Origin: a virus
Lineage: Duplodnaviria; Caudoviricetes
IMG/VR virus record: IMGVR_UViG_3300047561_000092
Location: 1-35,974 of that record
Reading direction: 5' to 3' (one strand)
Length of the DNA: 35,974 bases
Below are positions 3,779-30,020 of this stretch, piece after piece. The first letter of the stretch is position 1. Each line of letters starts with the position of its first letter. Both the position numbers and the translations under genes were made by a program. The notes under the pieces were generated by a model. The model made no database searches and was not told the DNA's origin. It saw nothing but the letters and a program-made list of their open reading frames with translations.

Positions 3779-4311
3779 TGGCAAAAACAAAAATATCAGA
3801 ATATTCAAGTACCGCTGCAAGTAATACGGATGTGCAAAGCATTAACATTGGCGAGGGAATGTTACCTTCAGATGTGAATAATGCTATGCGAGCTATTATG
3901 GCTCATCTTAAAAACTTTCAAGCAGGTTTAGCTAGTGATGATTTAACAGTAGGTGGGAATCTATCTGTTACAGGTACAGGAACAATTACAGGTGATACTG
4001 CTATTAACTCTACTGGTGCTATTAAAATTCCAGTAGGTACAAATGCTCAAAGACCTACCGCTATTAGAGGACAAATAAGGTATAATACTGATACATCTGC
4101 TTATGAAGGTTATGATGGTACAAACTGGTCATCTTTAGGTGGTGGAGCTACAGGCGGTGGTGGTGACCAAGTATTTAACTTAAACACAATAATAGTCACT
4201 ACAAGTTATTCTTTACCTTCAGGCAAAAACGCAATGTCAGTAGGCTCAATTACAATTAATAGTGGTGTAACAGTCACAGTTCCTAGCGGTGCTCGCTGGG
4301 TAGTCTTATAA
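3778..4311 (+). CDS. Short tail fibre/adaptor protein
   Basis: Likely start ATG at 3778 overlapping the upstream stop; [10 protein letters not shown]...EGMLPSDVNNAMR, IPVGTNAQRP...GQIRYNT; C-terminus near-identical to the upstream fibre (VTVPSGARWVVL). Confidence 0.8.
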   Translation: MAKTKISEYSSTAASNTDVQSINIGEGMLPSDVNNAMRAIMAHLKNFQAGLASDDLTVGGNLSVTGTGTITGDTAINSTGAIKIPVGTNAQRPTAIRGQIRYNTDTSAYEGYDGTNWSSLGGGATGGGGDQVFNLNTIIVTTSYSLPSGKNAMSVGSITINSGVTVTVPSGARWVVL

Positions 4312-19003: not shown

Positions 19004-19741
19004 TTGAAGATACTACTTATAGATATAGAAGTTGCACCAAATACTGCTCATGTCTGGGGAATCTTTGACCAAAACATCTCAATCAATCAATTACTAGAAT
19101 CATCTTACACTCTTTGCTATGCAGCCAAGTGGTATGGTGAATCTAAAATCATGTTTGATTCCATTCAAAAATCTGGTAAACAAAAAATGCTTGACTCTGT
19201 GCATAAACTTCTTGATGAAGCTGATGCCATAGTCCACTACAACGGTTCTAGGTTTGACATCCCCATACTACATAAAGAATTTTTACTCTCTGGTATGCCT
19301 CCTCCAGCACCCTCTAAACAGATAGATTTACTTCAAGTAGCTCGTAGACAGTTTAGGTTTGTATCTAATAAACTAGACTATGTATCACAGGCTTTAGGAC
19401 TAGGTGCTAAAACAGCACATGAAGGTCATACGTTATGGTTAAAGTGTATGAATGATGACCGTAAAGCATGGAAGACAATGGAAGAGTATAATAAGAATGA
19501 TGTTATATTACTTGAGAAGGTTTACGATAAATTCAAAGGCTGGATTAAACAGCATCCAAATCATAACGCATATTCTGTTGACGTTTGTTGTCCTAATTGT
19601 GCTTCACGCAAATTACAAGCTCGTGGTACACAAAGAAGTAGGACTGCTATCTATCAACGCTATCAATGTAAAGATTGTGGTTCGTGGGCAAGGTCTGTTA
19701 AGTCAGAAAAGATTGCCAAAGACTCTGTAGTAACCATTTAA
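19004..19741 (+). CDS. RNase H-like (DnaQ/DEDD) exonuclease with C-terminal zinc ribbon
   Basis: LIDIE, HYNGSRFDIP, YNKNDV motifs; CPNC...CKDC; TTG start with RBS aggagag. Confidence 0.85.
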   Translation: MKILLIDIEVAPNTAHVWGIFDQNISINQLLESSYTLCYAAKWYGESKIMFDSIQKSGKQKMLDSVHKLLDEADAIVHYNGSRFDIPILHKEFLLSGMPPPAPSKQIDLLQVARRQFRFVSNKLDYVSQALGLGAKTAHEGHTLWLKCMNDDRKAWKTMEEYNKNDVILLEKVYDKFKGWIKQHPNHNAYSVDVCCPNCASRKLQARGTQRSRTAIYQRYQCKDCGSWARSVKSEKIAKDSVVTI

Positions 19742-19748
19742 GGATTAT

Positions 19749-19922
19749 ATGTCACTAACGCCTCAACAAATAGTTAATCACATGGTAGGAAAAACAATCT
19801 TGTCATGTGAGTTAGATTATGAAGATAACCTTATCATCCTAGAAATAGATGATGGAAGTTATATAGAGATAGCTGGGGAAGACTTATCTATCTATGCAGA
19901 AATACCTCAATTAGACGATTGA
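19749..19922 (+). CDS. Small acidic protein, 57 aa (not in the ORF track)
   Basis: RBS aagga; MSLTPQQIVNHMVGKTILSCELDYEDNLIILEIDDGSYIEIAGEDLSIYAEIPQLDD; last + gene, overlapping the convergent gene. Confidence 0.65.
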   Translation: MSLTPQQIVNHMVGKTILSCELDYEDNLIILEIDDGSYIEIAGEDLSIYAEIPQLDD

Positions 19923-20272
19923 TACCACGCATCAATAAAGTCTTTTAATCCTTCTATACCATTACCAAGCATTACAAGTTTGTCTTGGGTAACTTTATAA
20001 AAGTTATCTACTTCAGTTCCTGTATTGTCACTATATCCATTTATTACTACTACGGTAAACTTATCTTGGTCTGCTAATGCTTTTAAGAGTATTTTTTGAC
20101 CTAAAGATATTTCCTCATTTGTGCGTTTCCATTCACCTACAAGAAAATTATCATGTCTTTCAAAAACCATGTCAATGTTAGATGGCATAGCTTTTGGATT
20201 ATCTAATATAACACCTCTTAAAAAACCAAAGTCCGTATGACTAGCATACGAGTTACGCATTGCATTAGACAC
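19907..20272 (-). CDS. PD-(D/E)xK-like hypothetical nuclease
   Basis: SNIDMVFE...LVGEWKR...SLGQ motif. Confidence 0.55.
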   Translation of the reverse strand: MSNAMRNSYASHTDFGFLRGVILDNPKAMPSNIDMVFERHDNFLVGEWKRTNEEISLGQKILLKALADQDKFTVVVINGYSDNTGTEVDNFYKVTQDKLVMLGNGIEGLKDFIDAWYQSSN

Positions 20273-20417
20273 AAATAATCATATCCTTGCCTGTAGTGCA
20301 TACTGTTACAGTGCCATCAGGTGCAAAGATAGTAGTTGTATCAGCCAAAGCCTTTTCTGTTCCCCATATAGCTAATGCAGCCATTACAATAATAAATATC
20401 CAATAAATTTTATTCAT
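20265..20417 (-). CDS. Small exported peptide, 50 aa (not in the ORF track)
   Basis: MNKIYWIFIIVMAALAIWGTEKALA|DTTTIFAPDGTVTVCTTGKDMIICV; signal peptide with AxA site and two Cys; overlaps both neighbours. Confidence 0.65.
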   Translation of the reverse strand: MNKIYWIFIIVMAALAIWGTEKALADTTTIFAPDGTVTVCTTGKDMIICV

Positions 20418-20685
20418 CATCAACTCTCCCTAACATAGCTTCAAGTTCTGGTGGATTAATAGCTAATTCATCTCTAGTAGCTTCTAATAACTTATTCTTA
20501 TACCAATCAGATTTTTCCAAGTCTTGCTCTGGATGGTCTTTAAACGGATAACGTAAGTCATACTTCAACTTACATCCTTTAAGATAACCAATGTATTCTT
20601 CTTTAGTTAAGCGACTTTTAATAACATCAATTGCTTCAATTCCACCTACCAAGTAATGTGGAGGTCTATTTACCATATCAACCAT
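20410..20685 (-). CDS. DUF3310 (SaV-like / T7 gp1.7-like) protein
   Basis: DMVNRPPHY..GGIEAIDVI...GYLKG..LKY..R...K....DLEK..WY. Confidence 0.85.
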   Translation of the reverse strand: MVDMVNRPPHYLVGGIEAIDVIKSRLTKEEYIGYLKGCKLKYDLRYPFKDHPEQDLEKSDWYKNKLLEATRDELAINPPELEAMLGRVDDE

Positions 20686-20788
20686 GCTTATCTCCTTATA
20701 AAGACTAAATCAATAAATTGATATAATCCATAAACGAACCATATCATTGCGAATACTACCATAAAATATACAATATAGTCAATGACTT

Positions 20789-21043
20789 TTAGTATCCTAT
20801 CCATTTACCTTCTTCCCTTCCTACGGTTACAGATATATAGTTCCTATTCTTAAAGCGTTTATCTAATGTATTATTGTAAGTCCATTTAGGCAAAGTAAAA
20901 TACCCTTGATTCTCCAAGTACTTTAATCTCACTCTATTGGTAACACAATCTTGCACAATATTCTTAATGCTGCAATTTGGATGTTCTTGTATATACTTGA
21001 TAATAAATTTTGCTTGTCTTTCATCATCTAATTTTGTGTACAT
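20789..21043 (-). CDS. Hypothetical protein (possible winged helix)
   Basis: IIKYIQEHPNCSIKNI...LKYLENQGY. Confidence 0.5.
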   Translation of the reverse strand: MYTKLDDERQAKFIIKYIQEHPNCSIKNIVQDCVTNRVRLKYLENQGYFTLPKWTYNNTLDKRFKNRNYISVTVGREEGKWIGY

Positions 21044-21621
21044 AATTCAGTCCTAATATATTTTAAAATACCATAATTATAACCACGCATTGTACATTCT
21101 ACAAGTGTATAGTCAAGTAACAACTCATCTATGCGTCTACGGTTATATGCACTATGAAACTCTATTAAAAATACCACAGGGAAATTGACTAGGTTTTCTA
21201 GTATCTCAATCTCTGCACCTTCTGTATCTATCTTTATAATATCACATGGAGGTAAGTTTTTAGCACTCATTACCTTTACTAATTCACCTTCTTTAGATTG
21301 CTCTTCACCTTCAAACATACTGGCTTCACCACAGTTATGTAGACCATAATACATCTGTCTTTCACCATCTTCTTTACCTATGGCAAAGTTTCTAATAGCT
21401 ATGTCAGTTCCTTCTATGTTTTGTCTTAATAACTCATAATTAGCTTTTATAGGCTCATAACAGTCTATTTTTGGCTTGTCAAAGTATTCATGTGCCCATA
21501 CCGCAAATCCACCTACATTAGCACCAATGTCTATGATATAAGGATTAGGCATTGAACCTATTGCATATTCCCCTTGAAATATCTTTCCTACATGACCAAT
21601 CATGTTGTTAGGAATTATCAT
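21028..21621 (-). CDS. FkbM-family SAM-dependent methyltransferase
   Basis: IIDIGANVG, CYEP, IIKIDTEGAE, LIEFH motifs. Confidence 0.9.
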   Translation of the reverse strand: MIIPNNMIGHVGKIFQGEYAIGSMPNPYIIDIGANVGGFAVWAHEYFDKPKIDCYEPIKANYELLRQNIEGTDIAIRNFAIGKEDGERQMYYGLHNCGEASMFEGEEQSKEGELVKVMSAKNLPPCDIIKIDTEGAEIEILENLVNFPVVFLIEFHSAYNRRRIDELLLDYTLVECTMRGYNYGILKYIRTELCTQN

Positions 21622-22349
21622 ACAAGCCTACCACTATATTGATAAGTGCCAGTATGAGTTAATTGTGCCCATGCTGCACCCCAAACTTTAATGCCATTAT
21701 CCCTAGCTAACTTACAAAAATGATAATCTTCTGATAATAGTTTTTTATCTTCATCAATGCTAGTAGCAAAGTATTCTACGATTTCATCACCTAGATTAGA
21801 GTTGTCATTTACATCATTCATGTTGTGGATATATTTAGGACATTTATCTTTGAGCTTATCAAATACATCACGCTTAATAACCATAAACCCTGTGCCACCA
21901 TGTTTAATCTCAAAAGGTTTATCTAAAGGCACAAGTTGCTTTGTAACATCACCCATCATGTTTACTACATATTCACCTGTAAAGTATTTTAATTGATTTT
22001 CTGGCACATTTTTTTTAATAGCAAATGCTAATGCACCAAAGTTAATTTCTTTTTTGGGATAAAGACCGCAGATAATATCTACATCTGAATCAATCATCTT
22101 AAATAAATGCTCTGGATTAAAATGAATATCAGCATCAATAAATATCATGTGAGTGCAATCAGACTTTAAGAAGTCATTGACCATTGTATTACGACCACGA
22201 GTAATAAGACTTTCGTTGTAAAGAAATGAAAAGTAAGCATCCATGTCTTTATTAATTAAATGAGCTTGTAGGCTTAATATAGACTCCATATAAGTGCCAT
22301 AACAAAGACCACCATACATAGGTGTAGCTATAAATAAATTAGGTTTCAT
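21618..22349 (-). CDS. GT-A fold glycosyltransferase
   Basis: IATPMYGG, ESLITRGRN, FIDADI (DxD), GTGFM, LSEDYHFC, H.G motifs. Confidence 0.85.
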   Translation of the reverse strand: MKPNLFIATPMYGGLCYGTYMESILSLQAHLINKDMDAYFSFLYNESLITRGRNTMVNDFLKSDCTHMIFIDADIHFNPEHLFKMIDSDVDIICGLYPKKEINFGALAFAIKKNVPENQLKYFTGEYVVNMMGDVTKQLVPLDKPFEIKHGGTGFMVIKRDVFDKLKDKCPKYIHNMNDVNDNSNLGDEIVEYFATSIDEDKKLLSEDYHFCKLARDNGIKVWGAAWAQLTHTGTYQYSGRLV

Positions 22350-22483
22350 TTAGTTTCCTTTTGTTGTTCTTTATAAACATCTATTGATTTATTAGTAATA
22401 ACAGTTGATGCAACATTTAACGCAATGTCTGCACATCCACTAATGCCCAATAGGGTAAAGACTACTATCATATTTTTTAACAT
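22346..22483 (-). CDS. Small lipoprotein
   Basis: MLKNMIVVFTLLGISG|CADIALNV: lipobox-like ISGC; start at 22483 or 22471. Confidence 0.55.
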   Translation of the reverse strand: MLKNMIVVFTLLGISGCADIALNVASTVITNKSIDVYKEQQKETK

Positions 22484-22667
22484 TAGTAACCCTAATAATA
22501 TTTTTGGTATCTGGAATAAGTGGTGTAATAACAACATTGTGCATTTTAGATTTAATATCATTAAACCATGTAAGTTCTAGTGGTTCAAATCTAGTTAAAG
22601 TAATATCCACAAGATTACCTTGACCGTCAAATTCTTCTATCTGATACCCTAAATGTTCTGGTTTCAT
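22440..22667 (-). CDS. Hypothetical protein
   Basis: Coupled to the upstream stop at 22667. Confidence 0.5.
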   Translation of the reverse strand: MKPEHLGYQIEEFDGQGNLVDITLTRFEPLELTWFNDIKSKMHNVVITPLIPDTKNIIRVTNVKKYDSSLYPIGH

Positions 22668-23044
22668 TAATAAAATTCCAAGTTGTTTATAGTTTTTTTA
22701 TGTGTGTGACCAAACCACTTACTTTTTTTCGCAATAGACTTATCATGGAAGTAAAGAGCATTTCCAATTTCGTTACGGTATTTATGAAACACAATTGTAT
22801 CAAGAACCAATAACTTGGTTTCCAAGTAGGTTTTTTCATCAACTGGCTCATGCGTTTCATCCCATACTCCGAAAAATTGTTTATCAGCGTATACAACACT
22901 GCATACAGTCCTACCCCAGCGACCAGTGTTAAGGCGATTACGGATAGTATTGACAATTGCAATTCGTTCATTTTTGTTTGACCCTTCGTGATAAGCTGCT
23001 GTTGCGTAACATACTATATCCATTTCTAAAGATTGAATCTCCAT
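22667..23044 (-). CDS. Cell wall hydrolase, SleB/Hydrolase_2 family
   Basis: C.ATAAYHE...AI...IRNR...TVCSVVY...QF...ALYFH...W...I....FY. Confidence 0.85.
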   Translation of the reverse strand: MEIQSLEMDIVCYATAAYHEGSNKNERIAIVNTIRNRLNTGRWGRTVCSVVYADKQFFGVWDETHEPVDEKTYLETKLLVLDTIVFHKYRNEIGNALYFHDKSIAKKSKWFGHTHKKTINNLEFY

Positions 23045-23100
23045 TATATTACATAGTCCTTTCTAATGGTTTTACAGTCGTGTCAAAATACACATAAGCG

Positions 23101-23132
23101 TATAATGATACTATAAATTCAAAGAAAGGAGA
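23101..23132 (+). promoter_or_regulatory. Candidate -10 box and RBS for pqqA
   Basis: Consensus TATAAT at 23101..23106 (the -35 is weak); SD aaggaga at 23126..23132, 7 nt before the ATG. Confidence 0.55.
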
Positions 23133-23139
23133 ATAGACC

Positions 23140-23211
23140 ATGTGGACTAAACCTACTGCTACAGAAATGCGTTTTGGCTTTGAAGTAACCATGTATGTAA
23201 TGAATAAATAG
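23140..23211 (+). CDS. pqqA: Pyrroloquinoline quinone precursor peptide PqqA, 23 aa (not in the ORF track)
   Basis: MWTKPTATEMRFGFEVTMYVMNK*; hallmark MWxKP...R.GFEVTMY with the Glu15-x3-Tyr19 core; strong RBS; Methylophilaceae-type sequence. Confidence 0.96.
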   Translation: MWTKPTATEMRFGFEVTMYVMNK

Positions 23212-23222
23212 TTATAACTGAT

Positions 23223-23252
23223 TGGGGATGCTCCTAGAAAGGAACATCTCCA
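23223..23252. terminator. Hairpin between convergent pqqA and ssb
   Basis: tggggatgctcct-agaa-aggaacatctcca: 13-bp stem with one mismatch and one G-U; no long U tract. Confidence 0.5.
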
Positions 23253-23473
23253 TCATCTTCATTTACAGGTTTACTAGCACCAGCAGAGTTGTTATCTTTT
23301 AACTGCACAGAACCACTAATAAACTTACCTTTAGCACCTTCACGAATCCAACCACTAATTCTAAATTCAATACCATCTACATTAGCAGTTCCTGTGTAGT
23401 CTGGTCGTTTAGGATTATCACCCTTATCATTTTTAAATAATGCAAAGGTATTTGTATTATCATATTCAGCCAT
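23234..23473 (-). CDS. Single-stranded DNA-binding protein (short phage type)
   Basis: LFKND...PDYTG...ISGW...KFISG; acidic tail DDGDVPF; follows the annealase and exonuclease. Confidence 0.75.
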   Translation of the reverse strand: MAEYDNTNTFALFKNDKGDNPKRPDYTGTANVDGIEFRISGWIREGAKGKFISGSVQLKDNNSAGASKPVNEDDGDVPF

Positions 23474-23474
23474 C

Positions 23475-24059
23475 TTATTGCTCCTTTGGAAATAACAGTT
23501 TATCTTCTTTTACATCTATATCAAATATGGGTTTGCGTTTCCAACGAGTAGGCTCTACATCATCTTCTACAAACTTCATAAATTCTAACACTAAAGGTTT
23601 ATACCAGTCAAACCATTCTTTGCTGCGTTCAATGATTTGTATAGTAATACCCTTTGGAGTCCATACCACAAAATAACATTTTGGTGAGTTACATACTTCC
23701 ATTTGTAATTGGACTTGAAAATAATAACGGTCTGGAATCATACCATAGAATTCCTGCGTAAATGGGCACTTGATTTCACCAACTAACCTGTCAAGAAAAA
23801 AATCAGGTGATGCACCTAATGGTAAATCAGGATGTACTACAAGTTTATTGCCATTCTCACATATCTTATCCATAGTTTTTTCAAACTCACATAGTGCCAG
23901 ATGCTCGTGGTCAATACCATATTCAGTCATTTCATTACCTGCAAATGGTGCTTCACGCAATGTCATTTGCCTCCACAACTTTTGTCTTTCATATACAGCA
24001 GACCAAGCATTAGAGGCAGTAACAATGTTATGCCTCCTATTGTCAGTTAAGTGACTCAT
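23475..24059 (-). CDS. YqaJ/lambda-exonuclease family protein
   Basis: VTASN, YG..HE, LGASPD, EIKCP, YYFQVQLQM. Confidence 0.9.
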   Translation of the reverse strand: MSHLTDNRRHNIVTASNAWSAVYERQKLWRQMTLREAPFAGNEMTEYGIDHEHLALCEFEKTMDKICENGNKLVVHPDLPLGASPDFFLDRLVGEIKCPFTQEFYGMIPDRYYFQVQLQMEVCNSPKCYFVVWTPKGITIQIIERSKEWFDWYKPLVLEFMKFVEDDVEPTRWKRKPIFDIDVKEDKLLFPKEQ

Positions 24060-24673
24060 GCAGATTTCTTAAGTTCATTAGCATAATCACGAAGCTCTAA
24101 TTGCACTTCAGGAGTTAAAGAAAAGAATGATTCTTTTAATTTACCTTTTTTATTAGCTTCTAAAAGATTATTTTTAGCTGCAGTTAAATCAATTTCTATT
24201 GGTTTAATAATTTCTTTTACAGGTGCTTCAGGAATATCCTCACCGCTATATATATATAATCCAATGCCATGTAATGCAATAGCTTTAGCTAAACATCTTT
24301 GCATAGCTGTATTAACTGCCATAGCATCTGGGTTAAGAATAGCTTTATTTGAATAATTGATTACTGGAAGTTGTGCAGTCATAGATTTATTAAAAGCATA
24401 AACTGTGCAAAATACCATAAGTGTTTCACCAAATTGTTTAGGTTCACCATAAGCCCATGAAGCTGTTGGGTCTTGCTGTAAAAGTGTATCTACAGCATAT
24501 GCCCATGATAAGTATGATAGACCGTTCTTTTTCTCAATGTGTTCAGATACATTAATCTTGCGTAAATCGTTATAGTTCATCTTGCTCTCCGTTTGTTGTT
24601 CTAGTTGATGTAGTTCCATCATTACTTGGTCGTAGTGTTGTTGCTGTGACATTTGCTCTCTCCCATTTGTCAT
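24056..24673 (-). CDS. Sak/DUF1071 single-strand annealing protein (Rad52-like); real start may be 24580
   Basis: INVSEHIEKKNGLSYLSWAYA...NTAMQRCLAKAIALHGIGLYIYSGEDIP. Confidence 0.9.
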   Translation of the reverse strand: MTNGREQMSQQQHYDQVMMELHQLEQQTESKMNYNDLRKINVSEHIEKKNGLSYLSWAYAVDTLLQQDPTASWAYGEPKQFGETLMVFCTVYAFNKSMTAQLPVINYSNKAILNPDAMAVNTAMQRCLAKAIALHGIGLYIYSGEDIPEAPVKEIIKPIEIDLTAAKNNLLEANKKGKLKESFFSLTPEVQLELRDYANELKKSA

Positions 24674-24782
24674 TATCTAATTTAAGTTCTTCGTTTAATT
24701 CTTTTAAAATCTTTGCTATGTGTTCTAAACCATTCGCCATATTATATACCCCCAAAATATAAAAAGAAAGAACCATAAGTAT

Positions 24783-24893
24783 TTAGTCATCATGTTTCTC
24801 CTGTTGGTCTAGTTTATGTTGAGCTTCTTTTTCTTGTTCGTCAAGTCTTTCCATGTCATCTAAATATGCGTCTGGGTCTAAATGTCTTTCCAT
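24783..24893 (-). CDS. Small acidic early protein, 36 aa
   Basis: MERHLDPDAYLDDMERLDEQEKEAQHKLDQQEKHDD; RBS aaggag; coupled to the upstream stop. Confidence 0.6.
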   Translation of the reverse strand: MERHLDPDAYLDDMERLDEQEKEAQHKLDQQEKHDD

Positions 24894-24988
24894 TATATTG
24901 CTCCTTCCAATTTACCTATTACATATAAACATAAAGCTACCCAACACCAAAACGCTGCTGCTGTCACAATCATAGTCTTAATACTCAT
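24893..24988 (-). CDS. Small membrane peptide, 31 aa; first leftward gene
   Basis: MSIKTMIVTAAAFWCWVALCLYVIGKLEGAI; RBS aggagag. Confidence 0.65.
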   Translation of the reverse strand: MSIKTMIVTAAAFWCWVALCLYVIGKLEGAI

Positions 24989-29488: not shown

Positions 29489-29653
29489 ATGACAATATCT
29501 GTAGCAATATGCACTACCTGTGGCGAGCCTTTTGACCGCACAGAGTATTCGCTTTGCAACGATTGCAGATATGACAAAACCTATATTAAGCTAGACAAAG
29601 AACCCACACAGGAAAAAGAACATGGCACAATCATTCAACACAGCAGTGAGTAA
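29489..29653 (+). CDS. Small zinc-finger protein, 54 aa (not in the ORF track)
   Basis: MTISVAICTTCGEPFDRTEYSLCNDCRYDK...: CxxC...CxxC. Confidence 0.55.
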   Translation: MTISVAICTTCGEPFDRTEYSLCNDCRYDKTYIKLDKEPTQEKEHGTIIQHSSE

Positions 29654-30020
29654 AGATAAAGTAGCAAGCATATTTGCACTTATGTTACTTCACGAAGTTA
29701 CTAATGCTCATTTATTACATTGGGCAAGTAGTTCTTTCTCACAGCACGTTACATTAGGTGAGTTTTATGACAGCCTAGCAGACAAAGTAGATGACTATGT
29801 AGAAGCATACATGGGTAAATACGGACAACTTAAGATTGAAGGTTACCCAGAAGTATATTCATTGCCTAAAACAGATTCTGTAGCCCAATTAGAAGAACTA
29901 TCGCATAATGTTGAAGCATTAAGAGAAAAGTTACCACAAGATACAGAACTACAAAACTTGGTAGACGAAATAGCAGACCTAATTGATTCAACCCTTTATA
30001 AACTACGTTTCTTAAAATAA
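29622..30020 (+). CDS. Ferritin/Dps-like protein (DUF5856-like)
   Basis: HLLHW..SSFSQH..LGEFYD.L...VD.YVEAYMGKYG...ELQN..DEI......TLYKL. Confidence 0.75.
   Translation: MAQSFNTAVSKDKVASIFALMLLHEVTNAHLLHWASSSFSQHVTLGEFYDSLADKVDDYVEAYMGKYGQLKIEGYPEVYSLPKTDSVAQLEELSHNVEALREKLPQDTELQNLVDEIADLIDSTLYKLRFLK

Follow-up and report, generated by a model that had tools for sequence, protein, structure and literature searches.

Why would a phage carry the gene for a PQQ precursor peptide by itself? PqqA is the precursor that is consumed in PQQ synthesis, and Methylophilaceae amplify only pqqA. The question is raised by the window (the whole stretch of DNA analysed here, an entire virus record of 35,974 bp with direct terminal repeats, 100% complete), in which an initial annotation, made from the letters alone, described a stand-alone pqqA and proposed that the phage uses it to supply a Methylophilaceae host with the consumable part of the PQQ pathway.

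A stand-alone pqqA in a complete phage genome

The peptide encoded at 23140-23211, MWTKPTATEMRFGFEVTMYVMNK, is 23 aa long and has a W..P leader (W2, P5) and an ExxxY core (E15, Y19). It scores 40.7 bits (E 2.2e-10; cut-off 21.1) against PF08042 of Pfam and 39.3 bits (cut-off 20) against TIGR02107 of NCBIfam, and has no match among the PHROG families. With both profiles over their cut-offs, the ORF is confirmed as a genuine PqqA family member, and the ORF, Shine-Dalgarno sequence (SD) and TATAAT of the initial annotation were all found (Table 1). An SD-like motif also precedes the gene in 53/53 relatives and 135/135 viral pqqA regions. An antisense ORF of 47 aa (23049-23192, minus strand) overlaps pqqA and is likely spurious; comparable antisense ORFs are annotated in place of pqqA in Melnitz and MW202481.

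Table 1. Features at and around pqqA in the window
Feature	Position	Strand	Remarks
Endolysin/cell-wall-hydrolase-like gene	22667-23044	-	PHROG 938; divergent neighbour of pqqA
Upstream promoter motif (pqqA box)	23063-23079	+	Left half-site TAATG at 23064-23068; right palindrome half degenerate
-10 element, host pqqA type	23098-23106	+	GCG + TATAAT (TATAAT 23101-23106); predicted; no canonical -35
Shine-Dalgarno AAGGAGA	23126-23132	+	7 nt 5' of the ATG
pqqA	23140-23211	+	72 nt including stop, 23 codons; PQQ precursor peptide with Glu15 and Tyr19
Conserved hairpin	23223-23252		Right arm formed by the last codons and stop of convergent ssb
ssb	23234-23473	-	PHROG 18154; convergent neighbour of pqqA

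The leader and core residues are invariant across 161 distinct viral pqqA coding sequences, though for the Glu and Tyr only two of the sets, leader-only and exonuclease-selected, are free of bias. The leader-only viral scan returned 120 copies, and E15 and Y19 are kept in every one of them (120/120). The most frequent viral PqqA peptides are identical to the most frequent host peptides.

The 66 ORFs scanned in the window include portal, terminase, capsid, Sak, exonuclease and ssb genes, and pqqA runs against the minus-strand block that surrounds it (19907-24988), as originally described. Its placement between ssb and SleB holds for the ssb and lysis-like flanks; the name SleB finds no support in the present analysis, which assigns that gene to PHROG 938 instead. 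An HMM search of the window found no PqqD, tblastn with host proteins found no PqqB, PqqC, PqqD or PqqE, and the window has no PQQ dehydrogenase gene, tyrosine integrase, or LysR or response-regulator gene. Because pqqB-E are absent from the genome, as had been claimed, the locus is classed as an orphan pqqA and not as a pqqABCDE operon. It is embedded as an auxiliary metabolic gene (AMG) would be: the virus record is complete, the flanks are ssb/exonuclease/Sak and the endolysin-like gene, and the same is seen in cultured phages.

Other genes in the window deserve mention in their own right. The plus-strand gene at 29622-30020 belongs to PHROG 858 (“starvation-inducible transcriptional regulator”), which we take to be Dps-like, and is another possible host-derived gene. 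An FkbM-family methyltransferase and an adjoining 243-aa PHROG 1574 protein, glycosyltransferase-like by eye, lie at 21028-22349 on the minus strand and are possibly a surface or DNA modification pair. A stand-alone gene of a DNA polymerase exonuclease-subunit family (PHROG 403; 19004-19741, plus strand) lies outside the replication block, with -10-like sites at about 18968 and 19484.

The host is likely a freshwater Methylophilaceae, to judge from sequence relationships and sample origin. The terminase is 71% identical to that of OM43 phage Venkman and to that of a pqqA-bearing Manatee Spring phage, versus 44-46% for pelagiphages; portal identities to Venkman and the Manatee Spring phage are 56% and 63%. 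The runs holding window-type sequence are freshwater. (None of the 24 listed holder runs is an RNA run, which carries no weight either way on expression.) A terminase search of 361 Methylophilaceae genomes gave three matches, at 30-46%, too distant to indicate a host genus. The host family proposed at the outset is thereby upheld, and so is the multi-copy nature of host pqqA: M. universalis has three copies in a 1.3-Mb genome, ten Methylopumilus-genus genomes have one to three each, and Methylophilaceae hosts are reported to hold 3-12 pqqA copies versus one pqqB-G set (PMC4109929). These copies are mostly orphan cassettes, with pqqB within 6 kb in only 22 of 80 host pqqA loci.

Relatives, cultured phages and viral metagenomes

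From 114 viral relatives of the exonuclease next to pqqA, the best 80 were examined; 76 of these carry pqqA, in every case on the opposite strand and after the ssb position. When 12 loci with less than 800 nt downstream are dropped (10 of them still had pqqA), the gene occupies the same slot in the same orientation in 66 of the 68 relatives with at least 800 nt. In one exception, L500, a different gene at the ssb position lies 18 nt from the lysis-like gene (L500:4829-4846), versus 189 nt in the window; this is an empty site with no cassette and no obvious hairpin. In the other, L443, the locus is rearranged. The exonuclease-selected relatives are redundant and collapse to 33 distinct pqqA coding sequences, over which dN/dS is 0.055 and synonymous changes dominate. 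Synteny and purifying selection, the two checks in relatives that the initial annotation had suggested, thus both came out in its favour, and on this substitution pattern we regard pqqA in the window as maintained by selection and not as a relic.

A chimeric assembly, which the initial annotation had named as a possible undoing of its proposal, is not borne out. Metagenome depth is 208 over pqqA and 3-6 on its flanks. Two contigs from one lake run connect pqqA to each flank with 0 mismatches, and in Venkman the exonuclease, a small gene and the inverted pqqA follow one another as they do in the window. Since that lake run may be the window's source sample, cultured Venkman is the better witness against a chimera. 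The idea of an attachment site (attP) with an integrase was rejected on the lack of a tyrosine integrase in the genome.

Searching 50,697 phage records with tblastn gave 12 matches. Six cultured Methylophilaceae phages account for nine of them (Venkman, MEP301, P19250A, MEP401, MEP402 and, four times, Melnitz); the other three are the Manatee Spring phage genome and two contigs labelled Acinetobacter “phage”. NCBI taxonomy also lists HIM624-A, pHIMB624-A, MEP431-434, Venkman EXVC038S, Mg-mtP1 and Rsa-mfP1, which are not among the 12 matches and either lie outside the collection or lack the gene; pqqA is therefore not claimed for every cultured phage of the family. The six phages fall in four groups, and pqqA is found in podo-, sipho- and myoviruses alike, whose tails differ. 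Pelagiphages gave no pqqA match in the same search, nor did three records from Manatee Spring whose portal identity is 54-55%; the gene therefore tracks the host and not the phage family. In the seven records inspected, pqqA is either unannotated or covered by an antisense hypothetical. Because gene callers pass over a 23-codon gene or choose the wrong strand, AMG surveys overlook it.

A core-motif scan of IMG/VR puts the number of stored stretches with the motif at about 2,300, an estimate that is redundant and extrapolated from 4/64 parts. Eighty-eight viral pqqA loci fall into 19 neighbourhood groups in every orientation; among 69 classifiable loci, pqqA is opposite to both neighbours in 31 and co-directional with both in 21. 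A pqqB fragment occurs in only one locus, L406, among the window and 257 viral loci.

These loci are not all of one kind. A second viral PqqA type (core RLGFEVTMYF, ending FKNS, FKQV or FKAV) makes up about 40 of 51 matches (L374-L424); it lies directly after the major capsid gene in L388 (about 3960-4040) and near a ribonucleotide reductase in L423, and occurs also in L380. None of the 19 upstream regions scored for this type reaches 4 bits on the Methylophilaceae box described below. The core RLGLEVTLY, presumably the enterobacterial PqqA type, is found in L393, L394, L413, L381, L395 and L406, several of them near contig ends; pqqA adjoins tail-fibre and UmuD-like genes in L393 and the pqqB fragment in L406, and these loci are probably prophage edges running into host DNA. 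Rare variants (L396, L414, L424 and one promoter-scan locus) have altered pre-core residues (for example RIGFEVTMY and RLGMEITAY) and keep the Glu and Tyr.

A promoter motif common to hosts and phages

Upstream of pqqA, hosts and phages have in common a motif that we call the pqqA box: T(C/A)ATG-N5-palindrome, 37 nt before the -10 box. Both this box, which begins at 23063 and hence outside the segment 23101..23211 first annotated, and the downstream hairpin are absent from the initial annotation. A generic sigma-70 scan missed the pqqA promoter because a canonical -35 is absent. The box covers roughly positions -49 to -35, the stretch in which a -35 would be expected and is lacking. Activators act in this region, and the position of the box fits a class II, activator-dependent promoter and suggests that it would bind an activator.

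The half-site TMATG has a spacing peak at 37 nt in 26/135 host and 43/136 viral upstream regions, with 2/174 and 1/441 in controls; the peak persists with the -10 picked first (27/135 host, 35/136 viral). Host promoters carry an extra 17-bp palindrome 23 nt farther upstream. Of 61 family genomes, 51 contain this two-site motif, against none for the reversed control, and pqqA follows it at 82-134 nt in 28 of the 30 host loci fetched. The perfect 16-mer has five sites in M. universalis: upstream of each of the three pqqA copies, upstream of pqqB, and one within a gene. No box lies within 1 mismatch at the dehydrogenase genes of that genome, which ties the box to PQQ synthesis and not directly to methanol oxidation. 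In viruses, scanning for motif + 22 nt + -10 with no pqqA reference gave 120 matches, about 250 being estimated overall. Among the matches listed, 97/120 lead to pqqA (64 distinct promoters), although the pattern was built from the viral consensus and some matched contigs belonged to its source set; with a wrong spacing of 26 nt, 0/19 matches lead to pqqA.

How well does the window fit? Its TMATG at 23064 stands exactly 37 nt before the -10 at 23101. A promoter model built from 26 host promoters gives 23063 the highest score of all 71,860 positions in the window (17.2 vs 12.5 bits); the site also ranks top on the -10 part alone (13.5 vs 10.2 bits), and the half-site contributes about 3.7 bits. 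The window misses the viral pattern of motif + 22 nt + -10 by 2 bases, and it retains the left half and the centre but neither the full 17-bp palindrome (-8.5 bits on the full-palindrome matrix) nor the second site. About a third of viral copies (45/136) reach at least 8 bits for the full palindrome; among close relatives 3/43 do so, whereas the half-site at 37 nt is present in 27/43. Scores are 12-18 bits for Venkman, P19250A and Melnitz and 6 for MEP301, and the box is absent upstream of pqqA in MEP401 and MEP402. Proximal viral sites are nearer to the strong distal palindrome of hosts than host proximal sites are (median 5.4 vs -11.7 bits).

That hosts and phages share the motif suggests a PQQ-specific regulator. 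Near host pqqA, an OxyR-like LysR gene and a NarL-type two-component pair each occur at 9 loci, neither convincing as a candidate. Methylopumilus-type host genomes have only about 3 LysR and 8 response-regulator genes, a small candidate set. In M. universalis, a PqqU/YncD-like TonB-dependent receptor gene directly after pqqE (L560:220-2469; G001:C1:580919-583168) has a 1-mismatch box upstream and is possibly a co-regulated PQQ importer.

The hairpin downstream of pqqA, with z<-2 in 48 of 53 relatives, is likely a shared terminator or 3' stabiliser. It has no clear U-tract and no strand bias: the plus strand is more stable in 17, the minus strand in 19 and the two are equal in 5 (n=41), a null result for its strand of action. 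The whole predicted pqqA RNA shows only a modest gain in folding over shuffled sequences (z -1.87), and a search for an Rfam family in the pqqA region gave none, with one chance-level match. Some relatives (for example L428, L431 and L454) have a 5'-UTR stem-loop between the -10 and the SD that is absent from the window; it reaches z<-2 in 25/53 relatives, 43/135 viral and 40/131 host regions and is a possible mRNA stabiliser.

What an extra pqqA may do during infection

The reading that we favour, at a probability of about 0.65, is that the locus is an extra-dose pqqA cassette, likely driven by a host activator, which feeds the host's PqqB-E and likely sustains methanol oxidation during infection. 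The 189-nt cassette would bring in an intact stand-alone pqqA under a putative host-type promoter motif. Host RNA polymerase and the host pqq activator would transcribe it from incoming phage DNA, and the short RNA would end at the hairpin shared with ssb. The phage peptide would then enter the host PqqD/E/B/C route to PQQ, in cells where PqqA supply would be limiting for PQQ. PQQ is a reusable cofactor, so the need for fresh PQQ within one infection is not obvious. Extra PQQ might support methanol dehydrogenase through a long latent period, with PQQ leaking from producers. The MEP401/402 paper gives latent periods of 17-20 h for these phages, and producers are described as losing PQQ by diffusion (PMC12124388). 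PqqB and PqqC may be rate-limiting according to another source, which describes limited gains from overexpression of pqq genes (PMC9851590).

Several other explanations have to be weighed. It is unlikely that the peptide leads to PQQ but pays off as a redox buffer or through another quinoprotein and not through methanol oxidation. M. universalis does have a second dehydrogenase homologue (below the cut-off), the OxyR-like gene stands near host pqqA at the 9 loci mentioned (divergence not established), and the second viral PqqA type occurs in phages without an assigned host; yet among cultured phages pqqA tracks methylotroph hosts, and a redox role lacks direct support. We find it decidedly unlikely that leaked PQQ closes a PqqU-like TonB-dependent importer used as a receptor by competing phages, giving superinfection exclusion. 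PQQ is reported to block a PqqU-targeting coliphage (PMC12124388), and the M. universalis receptor after pqqE, with its near-match to the motif upstream, has best PDB matches at E 2e-106. However, the receptor fragment scanned falls below the PqqU cut-off (276 of 1200 bits), and the phages that carry pqqA differ in their tails.

A decoy or titration effect, in which the peptide jams PqqD/PqqE or phage promoter copies soak up the host regulator and so lower host PQQ, is very unlikely. The likeness of proximal viral sites to the host distal palindrome is what titration might produce, but the window's own site is weak. The initial annotation had offered a PqqD/E decoy as its alternative; for a catalytically dead form, this is disfavoured by the Glu15 and Tyr19 kept throughout the unselected leader-only copies, and many viral peptides are host peptides. 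Roles of the peptide or RNA unrelated to PQQ, whether in anti-defence, in signalling or as an antisense control on ssb or on the lysis gene, are highly improbable. Loci opposite to both neighbours and the overlap of the hairpin with the ssb stop could be read that way, and one survey has a PqqA-annotated family co-expressed with defence systems (PMC11118758); against this, selection acts on the peptide, other loci are co-directional with both neighbours, and the promoter motif is pqq-specific. Least credible is an artefact, relic or attachment-site by-product: pqqA is a high-depth metagenome repeat and as such a possible source of misjoins, but the joining contigs, the 66 relatives with the same arrangement, the low dN/dS and the missing integrase speak against it, and with the cultured-phage genomes also counting against it this reading is largely refuted.

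A cassette that adds to the host's dose of pqqA is thus the reading to set beside earlier work. Its novelty was overrated at first: viral pqqA itself has been known since 2020, and the box common to hosts and phages is what is added here. Coutinho et al. (2020; PMC7678222) describe a Lake Baikal population, VP_266, that encodes PqqA, is predicted to be a Methylophilaceae phage and for which an AMG role was proposed, namely boosting PQQ and methanol oxidation, as for the window phage. VP_266 is T4-like and also has a methanol dehydrogenase, whereas the window is a 36-kb Venkman-like phage with pqqA alone. The same paper says that P19250A has none of these AMGs; contrary to that statement, P19250A carries an unannotated pqqA. 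Its available text does not mention a promoter motif or the prevalence of pqqA. A 2026 reservoir study lists viral pqqA/D/E. In the available texts, “pqq” appears neither in the papers on Venkman, MEP301 and MEP401/402 nor in a survey from 2024 of viral methane-metabolism genes, and the Melnitz paper names PQQ only as a medium component; according to the MEP401/402 paper, Venkman, MEP301 and Melnitz were the only earlier OM43 isolates. We found no published report of pqqA prevalence or of the box, in a search little aimed at the motif and with subscription papers (the P19250A description; Ge et al., 2015) and supplements outside its scope.

The closest counterpart is the orphan pqqA of the Methylophilaceae hosts (PF08042/TIGR02107), with which the phage gene has in common the peptide, the promoter-SD-ORF-hairpin layout and TMATG 37 nt before the -10. 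There are differences: host pqqA has two sites (a distal palindrome and a proximal half-site, 7 nt apart), whereas many phages have one palindrome-like proximal site, and host terminators are sense-biased (G-U 68 vs A-C 12), unlike those of the window phage group (42 vs 34). A broader proposition, on which we stay tentative and slightly on the sceptical side, is that pqqA may belong to the core AMGs of nearly all Methylophilaceae phages and has been overlooked as such. Unrelated lineages would have picked it up along with a host operator not described before; phages would have reduced this operator to one activator site, at which a host regulator would drive precursor synthesis from incoming phage DNA. 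If so, the 72-nt gene and its box together could serve to predict the host of about 2,000 viral contigs and to track down the PQQ regulator of these abundant methylotrophs. Methanol in lakes and along coasts is consumed by Methylopumilus and OM43, both of them abundant there; should a PQQ-precursor cassette be present in most of their phages, infected cells may go on oxidising methanol. Cultured phage-host pairs exist, and the question is therefore directly testable.

Among AMGs at large, cyanophages offer the nearest parallels: psbA is a phage-supplied, high-turnover part of host energy metabolism, and pstS, under pho-box control, is a phage AMG wired to a host regulator site. Phage pqqA would resemble them in supplying a part of host energy metabolism and in using a host regulator site. 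It is unlike them in that its product is a consumed RiPP precursor and not an enzyme subunit, and in that its regulator is only putative.
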